Source: an uncultured Alphaproteobacteria bacterium
GTDB lineage: Bacteria; Pseudomonadota; Alphaproteobacteria; HIMB59; GCA-002718135
Direction of reading: 5' to 3'
DNA: 64,000 nucleotides
Assembly: GCA_902587565.1 (NCBI GenBank)
Contig: CACILT010000006.1
Location: 821 to 64,820, forward strand
Part shown: piece by piece, positions 53,998 through 63,308 of the stretch
How the letters are laid out: every line of letters starts with the position of its first letter
Numbering within the stretch: position 1 is the first letter of the stretch
The notes under the pieces: generated by a model
Databases searched by the model: none
The model's input: the letters and a program-made list of their open reading frames with translations, nothing else
Told to the model about the DNA's origin: nothing
Translations under genes and position numbers: made by a program

Positions 53998-54000
53998 CTT

Positions 54001-54029
54001 AAGCCGCCGATTATGCGGCTTTCTTATTT
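54001..54029. terminator. Bidirectional intrinsic terminator hairpin
   Basis: AAGCCGC-cgattat-GCGGCTT is a perfect 7-bp GC-rich stem, followed by TCTTATTTAT on the plus strand. It starts 4 nt after the pepP stop and contains the stop codon of the convergent 58-aa ORF in its loop. Confidence 0.7.
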
Positions 54030-54187
54030 ATATCAAATTCAGTTTTTAAAAGATGCTTATCTAATTCTATTTTCCATTCCTTTCCATATTCAGATTTAAA
54101 ATATTTTATTAAATCCTCGTCTCTATTGTAGTTTTTGTCACTCAAATCTTCGTATACTTTAATAAAAAAGTTAAAAACATTAATCAT
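54011..54187 (-). CDS. Small hypothetical protein (58 aa), absent from the supplied ORF track
   Basis: ATG at 54187 is preceded by AAAGGA about 8 nt upstream. It translates as MINVFNFFIKVYEDLSDKNYNRDEDLIKYFKSEYGKEWKIELDKHLLKTEFDINKKAA. The stop TAA (54011-54013) lies inside the terminator loop. I recognise no family motif. Confidence 0.4.
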   Translation of the reverse strand: MINVFNFFIKVYEDLSDKNYNRDEDLIKYFKSEYGKEWKIELDKHLLKTEFDINKKAA

Positions 54188-54255
54188 ATAAAATTCCTTT
54201 CATATTTTATGTAATAAATTTTATATGCAATAACAGTATAAATTTATGAATTTTG

Positions 54256-54274
54256 ATATGCATAAAATGCATAT
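54256..54274. promoter_or_regulatory. Perfect 8-3-8 palindrome ATATGCAT-AAA-ATGCATAT (candidate operator)
   Basis: Read directly from the sequence. A third ATATGCA copy lies at 54223-54229, 33 nt upstream. All three are in the divergent spacer between the 58-aa ORF and the binding-protein gene. Confidence 0.35.
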
Positions 54275-54384
54275 AACAATTACATATATAATTTTTATAG
54301 AATATCAAAAATACCGATTTTAAATCAATTTTTACTATTAAAATTTAAGTTTTAATTAATTAAAGACATTTAATTCGTTCATCA

Positions 54385-54413
54385 TTGACTTTATATTTTA
54401 AATACGGTTCAAT
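54385..54413 (+). promoter_or_regulatory. Candidate sigma-70 promoter for the binding-protein cluster
   Basis: TTGACT (54385-54390), a 17-nt spacer, then TTCAAT (54408-54413). The GGAGGG RBS at 54434-54439 and ATG 54444 follow. Such matches arise easily in AT-rich DNA. Confidence 0.25.
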
Positions 54414-54443
54414 CTTTTGATAATCATTTTAATGGAGGGTAAA

Positions 54444-55739
54444 ATGAAAAAAAAGATCTCTAGGAGAAAGTTTATTAACCATACAGGTTCTGCTGCTCTT
54501 GCAGGTACTCTATTATCGCAAGTTGGTATGAAGTATGCATTTGCTGCTAACACTAAACCAGTAAGTCTTTTGCTTGGTTCACATATGGATTATTTGCAAG
54601 CTTTAGCTCCTGCTTATGCAGAAAAATATGGTGTTACACCAAGTATAGAAACAGTAACAACACCAGATCTATCTGTTAAATTAAATTCAGCGTATATTGC
54701 AAGAAAAAGTGTAGGTGATGCTATATTTGTGACTGCTTCAGAAATTGCTGGTTTAGCTGATAAGGGTTGGTTGATGGATATGAGTGATTTTGTCAATGAT
54801 ACATTAAAACCAAATGGCGTTATGGAAAACAGTCTAACTGCCGCAACTTACAAAGGCAAAGTCTATGCTGCCCCAATTACGATTGGTTGCCCAGTACTGC
54901 ACTGGAATAAAAATTTACTTAAAAATGCAGGATTGGATACAGAAGCGCCTAATAATTGGCATCGTACAAAAAATTCTTGGAAAGAACTTATTCGTTTTGC
55001 TAAAGAAATTAACGATCCTGATAATGATATATATGGTATTGTTGATGCTTGGGCAGGTACTCATAGTTTTTGGACTTTTGGAGCTTTACTTCAAGCGAAT
55101 GGAGGAAGTTTCTTAGACGGAAATCTAGATCCGATCATGAATAGTGATGCGGGTGTTGAAGCTTTAAATATGATGGTTGATCTTTTACATAAAGATAAAA
55201 TCATTGACCCAGCTACGCCTACTTACACTTGGGTATTCGATGCATCTCCAAGCTATATGGCAGGGAAAAGAGGATTTTTCTTAACATGGCCATTTATTAG
55301 TGGAATTGCAAATTTCACAGAAGATTCTGCAGTGCAAGGTATGAGTGGCATAGCACCACTTCCTGCATTAGAAACTTCTGCATCTGTGGATGGATCAGAA
55401 TTTTTAGCAATACCTAAATATTCAGATAATCCTGAGGCAGGAATGCAATTTATTGAAATGGCTTTAAGTCCTGACAATCAGATATTGCAAGGTTCAACTT
55501 CGCCTTGGGCACCATCTTTAGAACCTGCTCTAGATCATCCAGATGTTCTGAAAAATATATCAATGGCAGGTGTTATTAAAGACTCATATCTATATCCTGT
55601 AGATGCAGGTTTTTCTGCAGATAGAAATCAATGGGTTGAATTATTATCAAATGAAGTTTCATTAGCATTGACTCAAAAGAAAAGTGCTAAAGATGCTTTA
55701 AATGATGCTGTTAAGCAAATTAATGCGAGCAGATCATAA
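54444..55739 (+). CDS. ABC transporter periplasmic solute-binding protein, family 1 (CUT1 sugar-type), with twin-arginine signal
   Basis: MKKKISRRKFINHTGSAALAGTLLSQVGMKYAFA is a Tat-type signal. The mature part is about 400 aa with the family 1 pattern (..AAPITIGCPVLHWNK.., WAGTHSFW). I set the start at ATG 54444, after the GGAGGG RBS. Confidence 0.85.
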   Translation: MKKKISRRKFINHTGSAALAGTLLSQVGMKYAFAANTKPVSLLLGSHMDYLQALAPAYAEKYGVTPSIETVTTPDLSVKLNSAYIARKSVGDAIFVTASEIAGLADKGWLMDMSDFVNDTLKPNGVMENSLTAATYKGKVYAAPITIGCPVLHWNKNLLKNAGLDTEAPNNWHRTKNSWKELIRFAKEINDPDNDIYGIVDAWAGTHSFWTFGALLQANGGSFLDGNLDPIMNSDAGVEALNMMVDLLHKDKIIDPATPTYTWVFDASPSYMAGKRGFFLTWPFISGIANFTEDSAVQGMSGIAPLPALETSASVDGSEFLAIPKYSDNPEAGMQFIEMALSPDNQILQGSTSPWAPSLEPALDHPDVLKNISMAGVIKDSYLYPVDAGFSADRNQWVELLSNEVSLALTQKKSAKDALNDAVKQINASRS

Positions 55740-55758
55740 TTAATAAAATACGCAAATT

Positions 55759-56553
55759 ATGAAAGTTAATTTGGGTAATTATACATGGGAGGAAGTTAAG
55801 GACTTATCAGATAAAGATCCGGTTGTTCTTCTTCCTCTTGGTGCATTTGAGCAGCATGGAAAACATTTACCGCTCAAAGTAGATGAATTTATGGTTAATA
55901 ATATTGCCAATGAGTCTGTAAAAAAATCTCACCAAAAGAATATTAATGCAGTTGTGGCACCAGTTATTTGGTCAGGTTATTCACCACATCATATGGATTT
56001 TCCTGGTACGATTTCTATTAAGGATGAAACTTTAACAAATGTTATATTGGATATAGTTGAGAGTTTGGTAAAAAATAAATTAGAAAGAATAATTATTTTG
56101 AATGGGCATGGAGGCAATATTGCTATTCTTAAAAATGTTGGACAAAAGTTAAAATACGATAAAAATATTTATATAGCTACAGCATCATATTGGGATTTTG
56201 CTATGAAAGAAATTAATGAGTGGAGAGATTCTGATCTTGGTGGAATAAATCATGCATGTGAAATGGAAACAGCACTTATGTTACATATGCAAGAGGAGAT
56301 AGTTAAAAAAGATAAAATTGTCGACAACCCATTAAAAAGATCTTCATATACAGGAGTTGATCTTTTATCAGGTGGTTCAGTTGGAGTAAGTGCAAGCTTT
56401 AAAGAGCTTTCAGATCATGGAGTTATTGGCTCACCAAGTCTTGCTTCCAAAAAGAAAGGCACTGAACTTTATGAGATAATAACAGATAAAGTTTCAGACT
56501 TTATTGAAGATTTTTCAAAATGGACAAAACCTTTAAATGGTAAAAATGAATAA
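55759..56553 (+). CDS. Creatininase-family metal-dependent amidohydrolase
   Basis: LLPLGAFEQHGKHLPL..VDE, SPHHMDFPGTIS, LNGHGGN and HACEMET match the conserved metal-ligand pattern of the creatinine amidohydrolase / MftE / ArfB family. 264 aa. Confidence 0.8.
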   Translation: MKVNLGNYTWEEVKDLSDKDPVVLLPLGAFEQHGKHLPLKVDEFMVNNIANESVKKSHQKNINAVVAPVIWSGYSPHHMDFPGTISIKDETLTNVILDIVESLVKNKLERIIILNGHGGNIAILKNVGQKLKYDKNIYIATASYWDFAMKEINEWRDSDLGGINHACEMETALMLHMQEEIVKKDKIVDNPLKRSSYTGVDLLSGGSVGVSASFKELSDHGVIGSPSLASKKKGTELYEIITDKVSDFIEDFSKWTKPLNGKNE

Positions 56554-57757
56554 AAAAGATTTAGCCTTATTTTGTTATCCCTGGGACGTAATTGATGAAG
56601 GTTATGATGCAATTATTGATGCAGTAAAGAGAAGTGGACTTAATGCAATTTATATTACTGTAAATTATCACTCAGGAATGTTTTTTTTACCTCATAGTAA
56701 AAAAAGAAAAATATATTTTCCTGAACCTGGGGCTTTATACTTCAATCCAAGTAGTTGGCATAACAATCATAGTTTTCAATCCCCTATAAGTAATCTTACT
56801 GAGAATTGGAGTCAGTTTTGGGAAGAATTATCAAATCAATGTAAAAAAAATAATATCAAATTATGCGCATGGATGCTTGGTACTCATAATTCTGGAATTG
56901 GAAATAATTATCCCAATACATCTGTATATAATGCTTGGGGTGATCCAATCACACACTCTCTATGTCCCTTTAATTTGGAAGTAGTTGATCATTTTGTCAA
57001 TTTATCAAGAGATGTAGTAAATCTAGGTGTATTTGATAAAATTCTAATTGAATCTCTTGAATATCTTCCATTAAGACACGGGCATCACCATGAAGTAATT
57101 GGAGTAGATTTTTCAGCTGATATCGATTTTATTATGTCACTTAACTTTAGTAATAAATGTTTAGAGACTTTGAAGCAAAAAAATATTGATGGTGAAATGA
57201 TTAGAAACTGGGTTAAAAAAACTACAGATGATTATTTTAATCAAAAAACAAATAAAGAAGTTATGAATTGGTCTGATTTTCAAAGTATTCTTGATGGTGA
57301 GTTTTGGAATTACTATTTGGCAAGAGAAGAAAGTATAACAAACATCAATACTTTGGTAGTCAATGAATTACGAAAAGATAAAAATTTAAAAATTGGTTTA
57401 GTTGACTTTGGCCCATTATATCCACTTGGTCCTAATAATCAGAGATGGCAAAATGGTGTAAATTTAAATTCTCTATTGCCCTTGATTGATGAAATTCATC
57501 CAACTTTTTATTTTGCAGATTTAGATCTGATAAAAGAAAAATATGATGTTTATAAAAAAGTATTAAATAACAAAGTTGAAATGATACCTGCAATGAGAAC
57601 AATCCTTCCACAAGTTTCTAATCAATTAGATCTTAAGAACCAACTTCAAGTATTTAATAAAGATGCATCAGGATTTAGCTTCTATAACTACTCATTTATG
57701 AATTATGAAAACTTAGACTGGATTAATCAAGGTCTGTCTGAAAATGGAGATATTTGA
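56537..57757 (+). CDS. Hypothetical protein, 406 aa (possibly a TIM-barrel hydrolase-like fold with a His cluster)
   Basis: Long uninterrupted ORF that overlaps the creatininase gene by 17 nt (8 nt if ATG 56546 is used). I recognise no signature motif. Notable segments are NAIYITVNYHSG, CPFNLEVVDHF and ESLEYLPLRHGHHHEV. The fold suggestion is a guess. Confidence 0.6.
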   Translation: MVKMNKKDLALFCYPWDVIDEGYDAIIDAVKRSGLNAIYITVNYHSGMFFLPHSKKRKIYFPEPGALYFNPSSWHNNHSFQSPISNLTENWSQFWEELSNQCKKNNIKLCAWMLGTHNSGIGNNYPNTSVYNAWGDPITHSLCPFNLEVVDHFVNLSRDVVNLGVFDKILIESLEYLPLRHGHHHEVIGVDFSADIDFIMSLNFSNKCLETLKQKNIDGEMIRNWVKKTTDDYFNQKTNKEVMNWSDFQSILDGEFWNYYLAREESITNINTLVVNELRKDKNLKIGLVDFGPLYPLGPNNQRWQNGVNLNSLLPLIDEIHPTFYFADLDLIKEKYDVYKKVLNNKVEMIPAMRTILPQVSNQLDLKNQLQVFNKDASGFSFYNYSFMNYENLDWINQGLSENGDI

Positions 57758-57759
57758 GA

Positions 57760-58515
57760 ATGAATACTACTGTTGATATTTTAATAAATCCCGTAACTTT
57801 AAGATTTAGTTATCACAATAGCGAATTAATTTATATGTTTGCTTCACATCCAGAACAACAACTTGATGAGATGGAAAAGCTTATGGGTGTAACTACTGAT
57901 GATGGACCAATTTTTGACACAAATGTTGGTTTTTTACCAGTAGCTTCAACTACACTAATTAGAGGTGAGAAAAATATTTTAGTTGATCCTGGTAATTATC
58001 ATATCGGTTTTTATTCTATATTAAAGAGAGCACTGGCTTCAAAAAATTTAACATATGAAGATATCGATATAGTAGCTACTACTCATACACATTCTGATCA
58101 TGCAGCTTCTATTGTTCATTTTAGAAATAAACCTTGGATTATTGGAAGCAAAGAATTTGATGATATGGTTGCTATTGAGGGGAAAGAAATTGTAGATGCT
58201 AAAAAATCGATGATGGGAGAAATAATTGAAATCTCAGATGATAATGAGACAAAAATTATGGAAAATGTCTATGCAATAACCACTCCGGGACATACAAATG
58301 GCCATATATCTTTTATAGTTAAAAGTAATGATGAAACTATTTTAATTGCTGGTGATCAAACTATGACAAAGGAAGAGTATTGTGAAAGAAAATTTTCTAG
58401 ATGGTATCCAGAAGCAAATTTAAAACAATTAAACGAATCACTAGATAAAGCACAAAGCTATAAACCAGATCTTGTAATTCCAGGACATGACAGATCTTTT
58501 AAACCAATCAAGTAA
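57760..58515 (+). CDS. Metallo-beta-lactamase-fold hydrolase
   Basis: THTHSDHAAS (HxHxDH), TPGHTNGH, GDQ and PGHD ligand motifs. The start is ATG 57760, or TTG 57754 which overlaps the upstream stop. Confidence 0.85.
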   Translation: MNTTVDILINPVTLRFSYHNSELIYMFASHPEQQLDEMEKLMGVTTDDGPIFDTNVGFLPVASTTLIRGEKNILVDPGNYHIGFYSILKRALASKNLTYEDIDIVATTHTHSDHAASIVHFRNKPWIIGSKEFDDMVAIEGKEIVDAKKSMMGEIIEISDDNETKIMENVYAITTPGHTNGHISFIVKSNDETILIAGDQTMTKEEYCERKFSRWYPEANLKQLNESLDKAQSYKPDLVIPGHDRSFKPIK

Positions 58516-59416
58516 TTCTCAATTCAAATTTTCAAGAGAAAAAATTCTTGCTTTTACACTAATACTTCCTTCTTTAATTCTAGTTTTTATAACTTATTTA
58601 TACCCAGCTATATTTACTTTTGTAATAAGTTTTGCCGAATATGATATAATTCGCTTAAAAATAAAAAAATTTATTCAATTTAAAAACTTTGAATTTTTAA
58701 TAAGTAATTATTTTTTTACAAGTTCTGTCTTAAGAACTATTTACTTCGGGTTTTTGATCTGTGTGTGTACAACAATACTTTCTTTCTTGATCGCACTTCT
58801 TTTAAATGAAAAATTTATTGGAAAAGCATTTTTAAGAGTCATGATTGTATTACCTTGGGCAGTGCCATCTGTTGTTTCTGGTGTACTGTGGGGACAAATG
58901 TTTCATGCTGATACAGGGTTTTTAAATGCTTTATTATATCAATTAGGGGTCATATCAGGTTACAAAATTTGGTTAGCAGATCCATTAGTAGCCCTTCATG
59001 TAATAGCTATTGCTGAAATCTGGAAAGCAATTCCTTTCATGACATTATTTTTTTTATCAGGATTACAAAGTTTACCCTCGGAAGTTTTTGAGGCTGCTGC
59101 AGTTGATGGAGCAAATGTATTTCAAAGGTTCTCTAACATTTTATTTCCTTTAATGTTACCAATTGCGATACCACTTTTCTTGATACAATTTGTTTTAGCA
59201 ATGAAATCATTTGATACAATTTTTGTTCTTACAAGAGGGGGGCCAGGGGGTGGAACAACAACATTAAATTATTTTATTTATCAAGAAGCATTTGAAACTT
59301 TTAATCTAGGCCGAGCTTCAGCAGCTGCCTATGTTTTGCTAATAATTACTTTAGCTGTTGTATTAATTCCAACTATTTCAAGATTTCTAATAAAATTTTT
59401 TTGGGGTAATAAATGA
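58487..59416 (+). CDS. ABC transporter permease (MalF/UgpA-like, CUT1)
   Basis: Six predicted hydrophobic segments and EAA loop LPSEVFEAAAVDGANVFQRF..ILFPLM. 309 aa. Confidence 0.88.
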   Translation: MTDLLNQSSNSQFKFSREKILAFTLILPSLILVFITYLYPAIFTFVISFAEYDIIRLKIKKFIQFKNFEFLISNYFFTSSVLRTIYFGFLICVCTTILSFLIALLLNEKFIGKAFLRVMIVLPWAVPSVVSGVLWGQMFHADTGFLNALLYQLGVISGYKIWLADPLVALHVIAIAEIWKAIPFMTLFFLSGLQSLPSEVFEAAAVDGANVFQRFSNILFPLMLPIAIPLFLIQFVLAMKSFDTIFVLTRGGPGGGTTTLNYFIYQEAFETFNLGRASAAAYVLLIITLAVVLIPTISRFLIKFFWGNK

Positions 59417-60246
59417 AAAAAAATTTGATTCTAAAAAATTTTTTTATTTATTTTTCTGCACTCATAGTATTTTTGATAATGTTTTTTCCACTATACGGTT
59501 TGATATTAACAAGTTTACAACCTGAAAATATAATTAGATCTAGAAATTTGTCTTTTTTTCCTACAGAAATTATATTTACTCATTTTGCTGAGGTTTTGAA
59601 GCCTAATCATATATCTAATATTTATGAGGGTATTAAAAATAGTCTTATTGTTTCATTCCTCACATCTTTTTTATGCATAATTTTAGCTTTTCCTGCAGCA
59701 TACTCACTTGCAAGATTAAATTTACCAGCTAAAAATATTATCCTTGGAACTTTAATTTCTATTTATTTTCTTCCAACAATACTTTTTGTAATTCCCTTAT
59801 TTGTTATATTAGTTTCATATCAACTAGATGACACTATTTTAAGTCTAGTTGTTCCGTATACTGCTTTTACATTACCTTTTGTGATCTGGATTTTAAAATC
59901 ATTTATTGATAAGCTACCTGTTGAGGTAGAGGAAGCTGCAAAAATTGATGGTTGTTCTACTCTACAACTTTTAATTCACATCATTTTCCCTTTATTGAGA
60001 CCTGGTTTAATAGCAGCCTTCATATTTGCATTTATTTTATCTTGGGTTGAATTTTTAACACCTTTAATATTTACTAATAATTTGAAAATTTCTACAGTAG
60101 CTCTTGGATTATTTAGGAGCACTATAGACATTAAAATTGGTCAACAAGCTGCAGCTGCAATAATTACTTTAATTCCAGTAACAATACTAATGATTTTTTT
60201 TCAACAATATATTACAAAAGTAGTATTATCGGGAAGTGATAAATAA
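59413..60246 (+). CDS. ABC transporter permease (MalG/UgpE-like, CUT1)
   Basis: EAA loop LPVEVEEAAKIDGCSTLQLL..IIFPLLRPG. 277 aa. It overlaps the preceding permease gene by 4 nt. Confidence 0.88.
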   Translation: MKKNLILKNFFIYFSALIVFLIMFFPLYGLILTSLQPENIIRSRNLSFFPTEIIFTHFAEVLKPNHISNIYEGIKNSLIVSFLTSFLCIILAFPAAYSLARLNLPAKNIILGTLISIYFLPTILFVIPLFVILVSYQLDDTILSLVVPYTAFTLPFVIWILKSFIDKLPVEVEEAAKIDGCSTLQLLIHIIFPLLRPGLIAAFIFAFILSWVEFLTPLIFTNNLKISTVALGLFRSTIDIKIGQQAAAAIITLIPVTILMIFFQQYITKVVLSGSDK

Positions 60247-61253
60247 TGAGTAAATTAAAAATTGCAGTTATTGGAACTGGTTTAGTTGGCACATTTCATG
60301 CAGAAGTTTTTTTTAGAAATCCTAATTCTGAGCTTGTTGCTGTTTGTGATGTAGATAAAGAAAAGGTTAATTCTGTTGCACAATCATTTAATTGTAAAGC
60401 TTATGAAGATTTTACAAAATTAATAAACACTGAAACACTAGATGCTATTAGTATTGCTACACCTGAACAAATAAGAATAGAGCCTGCTGTTATGTCAGTA
60501 AAAAAAGGTTTAAAAATTTTGCTAGAAAAACCTCTCGGTAGAAATTTGGAAAAAATACATGAGTTAGTCGATAAAATAAAAGATCATAACAAAATTATTT
60601 CTGTAAATTTTATTCTTCACGAAGATCCGCGATATAAATTAATGAAAGAAAAAGTTAAAAATGACGAAATTGGCAATATCGTATCTTGTTTTGCACGAAG
60701 AAGGGGTAACAGGTTTGGAATTGAAATTTATGCTCCATGGACTGACCTTTTATCTTCAACTTTAATCCATGATATTCAAATGACCATGTCCATTAATAAA
60801 TCAAAGCCAGTAAGAGTTTTTGCAGAGGCAGTTATTAGAGAATGTAAGGAATATGATTCGCATGATGCTGTGATGGCAATCATGAAATTTGATGATGGAA
60901 GTTTGGCTTCCTTTGAAACATCTTGGGTATTGCCTAAAAATCAACCTGAGCCACTTGATCCAGCACTTCATGTTATAGGAGATAAAGGATCAATTATTAT
61001 AGAAGGATCATCAATGGGTTTGCAGATGCAAACAGAAACAAATTATATGAAGCCGGATATTGCTAATTGGCCAACTATAGACTCAAAAGTGGACGGGTGT
61101 TTAAAGAGGGGTTTAGATAAATTTATTGACGACTGCGTTTTTGATCAAAAACCAGCGGTAAATTTACAGGCTGCTTTAGAAGCAGAAAGAGTCGTATTTG
61201 CGATGAAGGAATCAATTGCTAAAGGTATTCCAATCGATATTAATATATCGTAA
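60246..61253 (+). CDS. Gfo/Idh/MocA family NAD(P)-dependent oxidoreductase
   Basis: N-terminal Rossmann motif KIAVIGTGLVGTFHA, the ILLEKPL motif, and a C-terminal alpha/beta domain. 335 aa. Its ATG shares one nt with the permease stop. Confidence 0.85.
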   Translation: MSKLKIAVIGTGLVGTFHAEVFFRNPNSELVAVCDVDKEKVNSVAQSFNCKAYEDFTKLINTETLDAISIATPEQIRIEPAVMSVKKGLKILLEKPLGRNLEKIHELVDKIKDHNKIISVNFILHEDPRYKLMKEKVKNDEIGNIVSCFARRRGNRFGIEIYAPWTDLLSSTLIHDIQMTMSINKSKPVRVFAEAVIRECKEYDSHDAVMAIMKFDDGSLASFETSWVLPKNQPEPLDPALHVIGDKGSIIIEGSSMGLQMQTETNYMKPDIANWPTIDSKVDGCLKRGLDKFIDDCVFDQKPAVNLQAALEAERVVFAMKESIAKGIPIDINIS

Positions 61254-61275: not shown

Positions 61276-62379
61276 ATGATAATTATATTAACACAATGTT
61301 TTCCATCAAGAGTTGGAGGGATAGAAACACTAATGTACAATATAGCATTGCACCTTAGTCGTTCTAAAGATGTAATTGTATTAGCAGATCAACAAAATTT
61401 TAAGGAAGATAATATTTTTGATCAAAATGAAATAAATTTTTCTACAAAAAGATTTCGAGGTATAAAGTTTTTCAGAAATAGAAAAAAGTTTAATGAACTT
61501 AAAAAAATACATGGTTTATCAAAAATTGATGCAGTAATTAGTGATAGTTGGAAAAGTCTTGAAGTAACAATAGATTTTCTTAAAAAAAATAAAATACCAG
61601 TTATCAGCTTAGCTCATGGTAATGAAATAATAATTAAAAATGATAAGCATCATAAACGTGTAAAAAAAATATTAGAATATGCAAATGCAATAGTAGTAAA
61701 TTCAAACTACACAAAAAATTTACTAAATAAAATAAGTAATAATTTTAAAAATGTTAAAATAATATACCCAGGTATTAATATTAAAAAAAATTATATTGAA
61801 GAAAATATAAGTTTAAATCAAGGTTCGCCAAAATTACTTACTCTTGCAAGACTTGAAAAGAGAAAAGGTCATGCTTTAATTTTAAAATCTATAATGAACT
61901 TAAAAAAATATTTTCCTGATATTCAATACATAATTGCAGGTGAGGGTGAGGAACTAGATAGTATTAAAAATAAAATTAAAGAATACAATCTTCAAGATAA
62001 TGTAAATTTAGTTGGTACCGTTAACGAAAATCAAAAAAATTATATATTCTCTAATACTGATGTAATGATCATGCCAACCCTAGATGAGAGTTCAGCGAAA
62101 TCAATTGAAGGATTTGGTATAGCCTACATAGAAGCAGCAAATTTCAAAATACCCTCAATAGCATCTAATATAGGTGGTACTCCTGAAGCAGTAATTCACA
62201 ATAAAACAGGCTTAATAATAAAAGATATTGAAGAATTAGATGAAGCAATAAAAAGCTTAATAGATAATAAAGAAAACAGATTAAAACTTGGTCAAAATGC
62301 TAAAATTAGAGCAGAAAATGAACTTAACTGGGATATTCAAATCAAAAAATACAATGATTTAATTAAAGAAATTCAATGA
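61276..62379 (+). CDS. Glycosyltransferase family 4 (group 1)
   Basis: N-terminal FPSRVGGIETL and C-terminal IEGFGIAYIEAANFKIP (E-x7-E). 367 aa. Confidence 0.8.
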   Translation: MIIILTQCFPSRVGGIETLMYNIALHLSRSKDVIVLADQQNFKEDNIFDQNEINFSTKRFRGIKFFRNRKKFNELKKIHGLSKIDAVISDSWKSLEVTIDFLKKNKIPVISLAHGNEIIIKNDKHHKRVKKILEYANAIVVNSNYTKNLLNKISNNFKNVKIIYPGINIKKNYIEENISLNQGSPKLLTLARLEKRKGHALILKSIMNLKKYFPDIQYIIAGEGEELDSIKNKIKEYNLQDNVNLVGTVNENQKNYIFSNTDVMIMPTLDESSAKSIEGFGIAYIEAANFKIPSIASNIGGTPEAVIHNKTGLIIKDIEELDEAIKSLIDNKENRLKLGQNAKIRAENELNWDIQIKKYNDLIKEIQ

Positions 62380-63308
62380 CAATATTATTTCATAATACAA
62401 CATTTGATAAAATAGATGTTTGGAAAAAAACAATAAAAAAATATTTTAAAAACGAAAAAATAATTTCTATAAAAGATTATAAAAAATTTAATGATGTAAA
62501 CTGTGCTATAATTTGGAATCTACCAGATGATATTCTTTCAAGACTAAAAAATCTTAAAGTTATTTTTTCTATGGGTGCTGGTGTAGATCACATTTTAAAA
62601 CTAAAGAATTATAATAAGAAAATTCCTATAATCAGAATAAAAGATGAAGAAATGGGGGAGAGAATAGCTAATTATTCTCTAGCTCAAATACTAAATTATC
62701 AATTAAATTTTAAAATTTTTCAAAATTCTCAAAGTAAACATTACTGGTCTGGCGAAAGGACACCAATTGATAATAAAAATTTAACTGTAGGTATTTTAGG
62801 TCTAGGCTTCCTTGGTAATCATATTGCAAGATTACTAAATAAATTAAATTATAATGTTATTGCGTATAAAAAAAATCAAAAAAAAGTAAAAAATATAAAA
62901 ATATATACCGGTAAAAATATTATAAGTTTTATTAAAAGCTCTGATGTTATCGTGTCTATTTTACCATCAACACCTCAAACGAATAATATAATAGATAAAA
63001 AGTTTTTAAAGAATATGAAAAAAAATTCTTGCTTAATAAATATAGGTAGAGGTAATGTAATTGAAGAGAAAGACCTTTTAAATCATTTAAAGAAAAACAA
63101 AAATTTTTATGCTTATTTGGATGTCTTTAAAAATGAACCTTTAAAATCAAGTAGTCAATTTTGGAAATTACCAAATGTAACAATTACACCACATGTAGCA
63201 GGTGTAACCGCCATAGAGCCTTCTGTTAAATACATGCACTCCAAATATAAAAAACTAAGGAAAAATAAAAACGTAAAATCAGATGTTAATCCATCTAATG
63301 GATATTAA
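62376..63308 (+). CDS. D-isomer-specific 2-hydroxyacid dehydrogenase family protein (glyoxylate/hydroxypyruvate reductase-like)
   Basis: NAD motif GILGLGFLGNHIA, NIGRGNVIEEKDL, LDVFKNEPL and TPHVAG catalytic His region. 310 aa. Confidence 0.85.
   Translation: MTILFHNTTFDKIDVWKKTIKKYFKNEKIISIKDYKKFNDVNCAIIWNLPDDILSRLKNLKVIFSMGAGVDHILKLKNYNKKIPIIRIKDEEMGERIANYSLAQILNYQLNFKIFQNSQSKHYWSGERTPIDNKNLTVGILGLGFLGNHIARLLNKLNYNVIAYKKNQKKVKNIKIYTGKNIISFIKSSDVIVSILPSTPQTNNIIDKKFLKNMKKNSCLINIGRGNVIEEKDLLNHLKKNKNFYAYLDVFKNEPLKSSSQFWKLPNVTITPHVAGVTAIEPSVKYMHSKYKKLRKNKNVKSDVNPSNGY

Follow-up and report, generated by a model that had tools for sequence, protein, structure and literature searches.

In a window of 64,000 nucleotides (the whole stretch of DNA analyzed, from contig CACILT010000006.1 of an uncultured alphaproteobacterium of the HIMB59 lineage), we found that a long open reading frame (ORF) encodes a glycosidase-like (β/α)8 barrel, hereafter the barrel protein, which is the founding member of a large unnamed family with no model and no characterized member. 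Its gene is the middle one of a fixed module, creatininase-fold/barrel/metallo-β-lactamase (MBL)-fold, within a catabolic cassette that includes a CUT1 ATP-binding cassette (ABC) importer and an NAD(P) sugar oxidoreductase. Our preferred, though tentative, suggestion is that the barrel protein serves as the glycosidase of this cassette for an imported amino-sugar-type glycoside.

The structure of the barrel protein was predicted by AlphaFold2 with an alignment of 41 homologues, giving a predicted local distance difference test score (pLDDT) of 91.4, a predicted template-modeling (TM) score of 0.91 and eight strand/helix units; a run on the single sequence gave a pLDDT of only 34, and the fold rests on the alignment-based run. 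Strands were predicted at residues 8-13, 37-41, 108-114, 168-172, 285-290, 319-324, 352-354 and 379-383, each followed by a helix, and a helical insertion of ~110 residues (173-284) separates strands 4 and 5. The sole internal stretch of low confidence (pLDDT < 50) was residues 182-188, the His cluster described below. The top 50 Foldseek matches in the Protein Data Bank (PDB) were all glycoside-hydrolase (GH) barrels, with a probability of 1.0 and ~12% identity. PgaB's C-terminal domain (GH153) came first (E 2e-11, TM 0.59-0.70), followed by GH14, GH35/42, GH29 and GH20.

Remote homology was detected at the profile level as well. When a family profile built from 133 full-length representatives was compared by hhalign with small GHL10 and GHL13 alignments built from genomes, it matched GHL10 at 95.6% (E 1.3e-8, over 131 columns from strand 3 to strand 5) and GHL13/PgaB at 80% over 307 columns; no signal was obtained against one GH42 sequence. 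Sub-threshold Pfam matches of family members were to GHL10, GHL13 and GHL6 only, with weak GHL10 matches in 8 of 41 members. The gathering threshold of Pfam GHL10 (PF02638), 27.9 bits, was not reached: the window protein gave no match at E ≤ 10 and the best family member gave E 0.0018. The matches to GHL10 and GHL13 therefore indicate a remote relative of glycoside-hydrolase-like barrels that belongs to no defined family, and the barrel with its GH neighbors, together with the detectable profile homology, places it in the glycoside-hydrolase-like TIM-barrel superfamily (Pfam clan Glyco_hydro_tim).

The original prediction, an earlier note made from the letters of the window, had likened the segments NAIYITVNYHSG, AWGDPITHSLCPFNLEVVDHF and ILIESLEYLPLRHGHHHEVIG to strand and loop patterns of TIM-barrel glycosidase-like or metal-dependent hydrolases. 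All three were found in the ORF translation, where they correspond to strand 2, a hairpin and strand 4, and the AlphaFold2, Foldseek and hhalign results bear out the glycosidase-like barrel. The other option, a metal-dependent hydrolase (amidohydrolase-type) fold, was not supported: strand 1 lacks an HxH, Pfam gave no match and the top structures included no such fold. The hallmarks of the amidohydrolase superfamily (HxH after strand 1, His after strands 5 and 6, and Asp after strand 8) are absent: YPWD comes after strand 1 and YNY after strand 8, and no Pfam Amidohydro match was obtained. A xylose-isomerase-like barrel (AP_endonuc_2: IolE, IolO and 3-keto-glycoside lyases) was likewise rejected, having no Pfam match and no representative in the Foldseek top 50. 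Overall, the profile-profile searches and fold comparison gave no confident match to a family of known function.

When the PDB was searched with the profile, the only matches were to expression tags (MHHHHHHSSGVDLGT...) in unrelated entries, and these were discarded as a His-tag artefact of the HHHE...GV...F stretch. Within residues 178-250 of the family profile (window 57068-57286), the HHHEVIGVD stretch resembles a His-tag leader and is a trap for automated annotation.

Residue conservation was assessed among the 133 representatives, which share 22-37% identity and were taken from an exhaustive search without selection by motif. E172, W112 and Y44 were found in all of them (100%), followed by H45 (99%), D17 and H117 (97%), C143 and H185 (96%), H181 (94%), E186 (91%) and H184 (89%), with R263, Y325, Y383 and Y385 next in rank. 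The conserved residues map to the C-terminal ends of strands 1-4, 6 and 8, that is, to the catalytic face of the barrel. D290 in strand 5 is conserved in the close clade only, and R354 in strand 7 occurs in 79 of the 133 representatives. In the profile alignment, E172 was aligned with the DD of the GHL10 motif FDDYFY and R263 with the WRR helix, and hhalign placed E172-S173 on H473-D474 of PgaB, with the acidic residue one position off and the histidine absent.

The RHGHHHE cluster (R180 to E186, window 57074-57094), which the original prediction had singled out as a likely metal site, is only partly conserved: H181, H184, H185 and E186 are conserved, but G182 varies and H183 is replaced by Y or F in other members. 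The family signature is H181-x-x-H184-H185-E186, with the consensus H-G-[YFH]-H-H-E, and the HGHHHE of the window protein is, judging from the alignment, a lineage variant of this HxxHHE motif. Mapping of the His and acidic residues on the homologues did not reveal the lack of conservation that had been named beforehand as counter-evidence. Compared with GHL10 and GHL13, the His loop is an inserted segment. It comes just after E172 and strand 4; this topology suggests that it lies close to E172, and a metal site at the loop is plausible.

We also found that C143 and a CxCxxC motif (positions 203, 205 and 208) occur in 119 of the 133 representatives (~89%). Because the cysteines disappear together, they are likely to constitute a single four-cysteine (Cys4) site with a presumably structural role. 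At these positions C-N-S-C is found in the window protein and its marine relatives, and the probable structural metal site has thus been dropped in this AT-rich lineage.

The barrel gene is certainly real, given the number of its homologues (159 from the 90% database, and 1049 clusters from the 50% library), and the dN/dS of 0.12-0.21 against four relatives indicates purifying selection. The start at ATG 56546 fits the N-termini of the homologues better than that at 56537. Measured from 56537, the ORF overlaps the creatininase-like gene, with its stop at 56551-56553, by 17 nucleotides, and measured from ATG 56546 by 8 nucleotides. At its other end, the TGA at 57755-57757 overlaps the TTG at 57754 of the MBL gene, the ATG of which lies two bases on at 57760. 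The overlaps at both ends show that the tight coupling to either neighbor was correctly proposed. The Kyte-Doolittle maximum over 19-residue windows was only 1.1, indicating that the protein has no transmembrane helix, and no signal peptide is expected since the N-terminus forms strand 1 of the barrel. Judged from sequence and model, the barrel protein is cytoplasmic and soluble. Thus, the earlier description of a genuine, coupled gene for a cytoplasmic protein that lacks a signal peptide and membrane segments agrees with our data, as does its statement that no family could be assigned from motifs: searches against Pfam-A, NCBIfam and PDB sequences gave no match even at E ≤ 10.

The family proved to be large. 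The word-indexed search that yielded the 159 homologues returned proteins nearly all labeled "hypothetical", one Rubrobacter homologue being labeled "DUF4015" in UniRef. An exhaustive search of 1.84 billion cluster representatives (50% identity) returned the 1049 representatives at E ≤ 0.001, of which 121 were at E ≤ 1e-30 and almost all were ~400 residues long, and when one genome of each species was scanned for the motif, 396 species proved to have relatives. Among them are marine alphaproteobacterial single-cell genomes 97-99% identical to the window; other carriers include Paracoccaceae, Mesorhizobium, Trueperaceae, Rubrobacter, Nesterenkonia, Candidatus Planktophila, Bacillota, Chloroflexota, Acidobacteriota and Planctomycetota. 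The literature searched held nothing on the barrel family or its gene combination (creatininase with MocA/MBL/ABC or MlrC; DUF4015; IolN).

The linkage of the barrel gene to its partners was conserved across phyla. The creatininase-barrel-MBL trio is contiguous in Mesorhizobium, Rubrobacter and Dethiobacter, where it stands beside ABC genes and an oxidoreductase, and in Alphaproteobacteria, Deinococcota, Actinomycetota, Bacillota and Chloroflexota the three genes were adjacent in nearly all loci where the barrel was 34% identical or more. Among 26 non-redundant loci, a binding protein was encoded in 22, an oxidoreductase in 21 and an M81/MlrC-type peptidase in 17, followed by a class-III aminotransferase (11), RidA (9) and IclR (7). 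When the creatininase subfamily was used as the anchor in metagenomes, the barrel gene lay directly downstream in ~47 of 48 loci with a creatininase identity of at least 38% and sufficient sequence; beside creatininase homologues more distant than these it was missing, except in one case, where it lay 4.6 kb away. The fullest layout, found in lake metagenomes, comprises a binding protein, two permeases, creatininase, barrel, MBL, oxidoreductase, aminotransferase, IclR and MlrC.

Distant relatives of the barrel (22-32% identity) have lost both partner genes and kept a redox neighbor, which was a short-chain dehydrogenase/reductase (SDR) directly downstream in 24 of 42 loci and a Gfo/Idh/MocA enzyme in 11 of 42. 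They often lie near CUT1 genes, M81, Amidohydro_1 and M20 hydrolases and a fold-III pyridoxal-phosphate (PLP) enzyme resembling D-Ser dehydratase; those of Paenibacillus are near a creatininase, a lactonase-type Amidohydro_2 protein and an enolase-type dehydratase, and the Acidobacteriota layout is barrel-SDR-Gfo, that is, with two redox enzymes. Some ORF picks at high-GC neighbor loci were antisense artefacts with no Pfam match. In Rubrobacter taiwanensis (L002:13332-16253), a second, different creatininase-fold gene was seen 4 kb downstream of the cassette, followed by genes for a class-II aldolase and a UPF0261 protein.

These data led us to consider what the barrel protein does in the cassette. 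CUT1 importers normally carry di- or oligosaccharide-like compounds, and the barrel is the sole conserved glycosidase-like protein of the cassette, in which no other conserved glycosidase candidate was found. In addition, a characterized GHL relative, PgaB, cleaves an amino-sugar glycan (PMC5933820). From this we infer a glycosidase activity, a substrate class, residue roles and an order of steps as follows. An imported small glycoside, probably an amino sugar with an amide-linked substituent, would be cleaved by the barrel protein, with E172 at the end of strand 4 as the general acid. D17, H45 and H117 may form the sugar pocket together with the aromatic residues Y44, W112, Y325, Y383 and Y385 at the strand ends, and the mobile H181-x-x-H184-H185-E186 loop may close over the site, supplying either a second carboxylate (E186) or a divalent-metal site beside E172. 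The released sugar would then be oxidized by the Gfo/Idh/MocA enzyme, the resulting lactone opened by the MBL enzyme to give the aldonic acid and the amide removed by the creatininase-fold enzyme, and the aminotransferase and RidA, which accompany the cassette in many genomes, could remove the nitrogen.

Several points weigh against this glycosidase hypothesis. Likeness to any characterized GH is at the fold level only (~12% identity, TM ~0.6), and no assayed family member turned up in the literature searched. E172 is present, but strand 7 does not end in a conserved carboxylate, having R354 at the site of the nucleophile of clan GH-A (GH42, GH35, GH5 and others). There is also no D-E or DxE before E172, where the family motif is [ILV][ILVF]ES, unlike the substrate-assisted GH18 and GH20 enzymes. 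Therefore, the pairs of clan GH-A and of GH18/20 are both absent. Glycosidases, moreover, do not usually have a conserved His cluster. The constant dehydrogenase neighbor would fit a post-oxidation enzyme (lyase, hydratase or isomerase) equally well. Finally, since the creatininase-fold neighbor is also similar to IolN, which hydrolyzes a C-C bond in a cyclitol pathway, the cassette may not handle a glycoside at all.

The main alternative, which we regard as possible but not likely, is that the barrel protein is a metal-dependent lyase, hydratase, epimerase or isomerase acting on a keto-sugar or keto-cyclitol made by the neighboring NAD(P) oxidoreductase, with the metal held by H181, H184, H185, E186 and E172. 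Models for such a step would be the 3-keto-glycoside elimination route, or the Thermotoga inositol route, with ring opening by IolN and epimerization by the IolO barrel. An oxidoreductase is indeed the most constant neighbor of the family, both in the close loci and in those of the distant relatives counted above, the Acidobacteriota layout has two redox enzymes, and the conserved His/Glu cluster together with the missing strand-7 nucleophile suits metal chemistry. The profile homology, however, points to GHL10 and GHL13, the Foldseek top 50 contained no xylose-isomerase-like or IolE/IolO-type barrel, there was no AP_endonuc_2 signal, and the His loop is predicted to be flexible, not a pre-formed site. 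As for the neighbors, the creatininase-fold protein matches the IolN model and the oxidoreductase the IolG model, but both matches are far below the cut-offs and the former protein scores higher on the MftE and creatininase models.

The conservation of the HxxHHE core and E172 could also be explained if the protein were, in line with the second option of the original prediction, a barrel-based deacylase, hydrolyzing amides or esters by means of a metal, in which the His cluster activates water, and the creatininase-fold, M81, M20 and Amidohydro_1 neighbors suggest that the cassette handles amide-bearing compounds. We consider this improbable, as one to three amide hydrolases are already encoded in the cassette, the structural neighbors are glycosidases, and neither an amidohydrolase-superfamily hallmark nor a Pfam match was found. 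Less probable still would be a non-catalytic subunit that binds the sugar or holds its two partner enzymes, of the creatininase and MBL folds, together in a complex. That the gene order is fixed across phyla, with stops overlapping starts, suggests co-production in stoichiometric amounts, and PgaB's C-terminal domain was itself initially regarded as a binding domain (PMC5933820). Nevertheless, distant relatives exist without both partner genes, and the strict conservation of polar residues on the catalytic face (E172, H45, D17 and H117) speaks for catalysis.

Taken together, these considerations lead us to prefer, with reserve, the glycosidase hypothesis. An extension of it, which we regard as speculative and rather unlikely, is that the family would represent a new CAZy-level GH family using the strand-4 Glu and a metal on the mobile HxxHHE loop for metal-assisted cleavage of glycosides, with no strand-7 nucleophile; with its creatininase-fold and MBL-fold partners, it would then define an unrecognized, phosphorylation-independent oxidative route by which abundant bacterioplankton of the sea and of fresh water use conjugates of amino sugars, for example fragments of chitin or peptidoglycan in dissolved organic matter.

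The features of the barrel gene and its operon are listed in Table 1.

Table 1. Positions in the window of the barrel gene, selected sites of its product and the other genes of the operon.
Feature	Position	Strand	Description
Barrel-protein ORF	56537..57757	+	406 aa, stop-free, single-domain (β/α)8 barrel; alternative start ATG 56546
E172	57050..57052	+	last residue of strand 4, candidate general acid
D17	56585..56587	+	in the YPWDxxDE motif that follows strand 1; may bind substrate or be the second catalytic carboxylate
His-cluster loop H181-G-H-H-H-E186	57077..57094	+	conserved core H181, H184, H185, E186
C143	56963..56965	+	first ligand of the putative four-cysteine site of the family; kept in the window protein
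CxCxxC remnant N203-F-S205-N-K-C208	57143..57160	+	putative Cys4 site lost
CUT1 (SBP_bac_1) solute-binding protein	54444..55739	+	SRRKF twin-arginine-like leader; nearest solved relative trehalose/maltose-binding protein 1eu8
Creatininase-fold amidohydrolase	55759..56553	+	obligatory upstream partner of the barrel gene
MBL-fold hydrolase	57754..58515	+	obligatory downstream partner; probable start ATG 57760; weakly like AiiA-type lactonases
Two CUT1 ABC permeases	58487..60246	+	
Gfo/Idh/MocA NAD(P) oxidoreductase	60246..61253	+	nearest models IolG and UDP-GlcNAc 3-dehydrogenase, both below cut-off

The gene order in the window is binding protein, creatininase-fold, barrel, MBL, two permeases, Gfo/Idh/MocA, a GT4 glycosyltransferase and a GhrA-like dehydrogenase. 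The creatininase-fold protein scored 135 bits on MftE, 124 on creatininase and 88 on IolN (3-dehydro-scyllo-inosose hydrolase), all below the cut-off, and its orthologues share the invariant residues E31, H33, D42, H117 and E170, which we take to be candidate metal ligands as in creatininase. Only the closest marine relatives have the genes for the GT4 glycosyltransferase and the 2-hydroxyacid dehydrogenase of the GhrA-like type (61276-63308); since this pair is absent from the cassette in other phyla, it is probably a separate module.

No ATPase gene was found in the operon (54444-61253). MalK-like candidates occur elsewhere in the genome (G000:C3:116395-117603 and C11:15073-16203), the one on C3 being within another CUT1 cluster with RraA-like and Gfo/Idh/MocA genes. 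There is likewise no regulator gene in the window's version of the cassette, where other phyla have IclR or LacI. The 446-nucleotide spacer upstream of the binding-protein gene (53998-54443) is very AT-rich and contains a palindrome, ATATGCATAAAATGCATAT, near 54256-54274, which is possibly an operator.

On another contig of the same genome (G000:C2:137875-148821), genes for an MlrC-type M81 peptidase and a class-III aminotransferase, which other phyla carry within the cassette, lie side by side, adjoining an Opp-like ABC system and NanA-, NanE- and ROK kinase-like genes (judged from N-terminal sequences only); RidA- and RraA-like genes follow 13-19 kb beyond this region. A 477-residue ORF (G000:C5:61512-61802) gave a weak GHL10 match (E 9e-4) and may be another divergent GH-like barrel.

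As for its wider meaning, the cassette that has the barrel as its signature enzyme is found repeatedly in different phyla, in streamlined marine Alphaproteobacteria, a metagenome-assembled genome of Candidatus Planktophila (freshwater Actinomycetota), lake metagenome contigs, Paracoccaceae, Trueperaceae, Rubrobacter, Bacillota and Chloroflexota. Because small genomes seldom keep a cassette of seven to ten genes without a common substrate, this one probably marks a compound of aquatic dissolved organic matter with an as yet unmapped turnover. In terms of enzymology, more than 1000 clusters (50% identity) without a Pfam model share a barrel of the glycosidase kind in which the usual catalytic pair is missing and a His cluster is conserved. 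Characterization of one member would name ~1000 protein clusters and give a role to both fixed partners. The barrel gene is, as the original prediction had supposed, the most likely seat of new chemistry within the operon.

Among known systems, PgaB's C-terminal domain (GH153, Pfam GHL13) is the best structural match to the barrel protein, and its profile match spans nearly the whole barrel. The acidic residue ending strand 4 of the barrel protein lies within one position of the H-D474 motif of PgaB. Both proteins have acidic residues after strand 1 (D326/D328 in PgaB, D17/D20 in the barrel protein), and a classical second catalytic carboxylate is missing from both. PgaB acts together with a de-N-acetylase and cleaves its amino-sugar glycan, and the catalytic acid of GH153 is probably D474 (PMC5933820). 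In the barrel protein, however, E-S replaces the H-D of PgaB and the Pfam GHL13 threshold is not reached, and PgaB has neither the HxxHHE loop nor the Cys4 motif nor the ~110-residue helical insertion of the barrel family. Furthermore, PgaB is a periplasmic protein fused to a CE4 deacetylase and encoded in the pga operon, whereas the barrel protein is cytoplasmic, stand-alone and part of a catabolic ABC cassette.

GHL10 (PF02638), the best profile-profile match, is the family to which E. coli YddW/DigH belongs, an enzyme that hydrolyzes denuded strands of peptidoglycan. It differs from the barrel family in lacking the His loop and the Cys motif, which are insertions relative to it, and in that its proteins are mostly exported lipoproteins. 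The GH42/GH35 β-galactosidases of clan GH-A were recurrent Foldseek matches (TM 0.50-0.57) and share with the barrel protein a Glu ending strand 4 and a Tyr after strand 6; unlike the barrel protein, they have a strand-7 Glu, and GH42 consists of three domains as compared with the single domain of 406 residues. The GH42 enzyme of Thermus has a C...CxCxxC zinc site after the acid/base Glu, a parallel to the Cys4 site that the literature search did not confirm and that we take as a lead only.

The closest parallel in pathway logic was found in the ong pathway of Pseudoalteromonas prydzensis for oxidized chitin sugars, which consists of the GH20 enzyme OngA, the D-aminoacylase OngB, the PLP deaminase OngC and the RidA protein OngD (PMC9537276). 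The enzymes are not orthologous, with GH20 in place of the barrel and a D-aminoacylase in place of the creatininase fold. The ong substrate enters already oxidized by a lytic polysaccharide monooxygenase, whereas the barrel cassette encodes a dehydrogenase and a putative lactonase. Uptake of the ong substrate is not by a CUT1 ABC system. Nevertheless, the ong pathway and the barrel cassettes have in common a sequence of glycosidase (putative in the cassettes), N-deacylase, amine removal by a PLP enzyme or aminotransferase, and RidA, and in the ong pathway an amino-sugar acid is catabolized without initial phosphorylation (PMC9537276).

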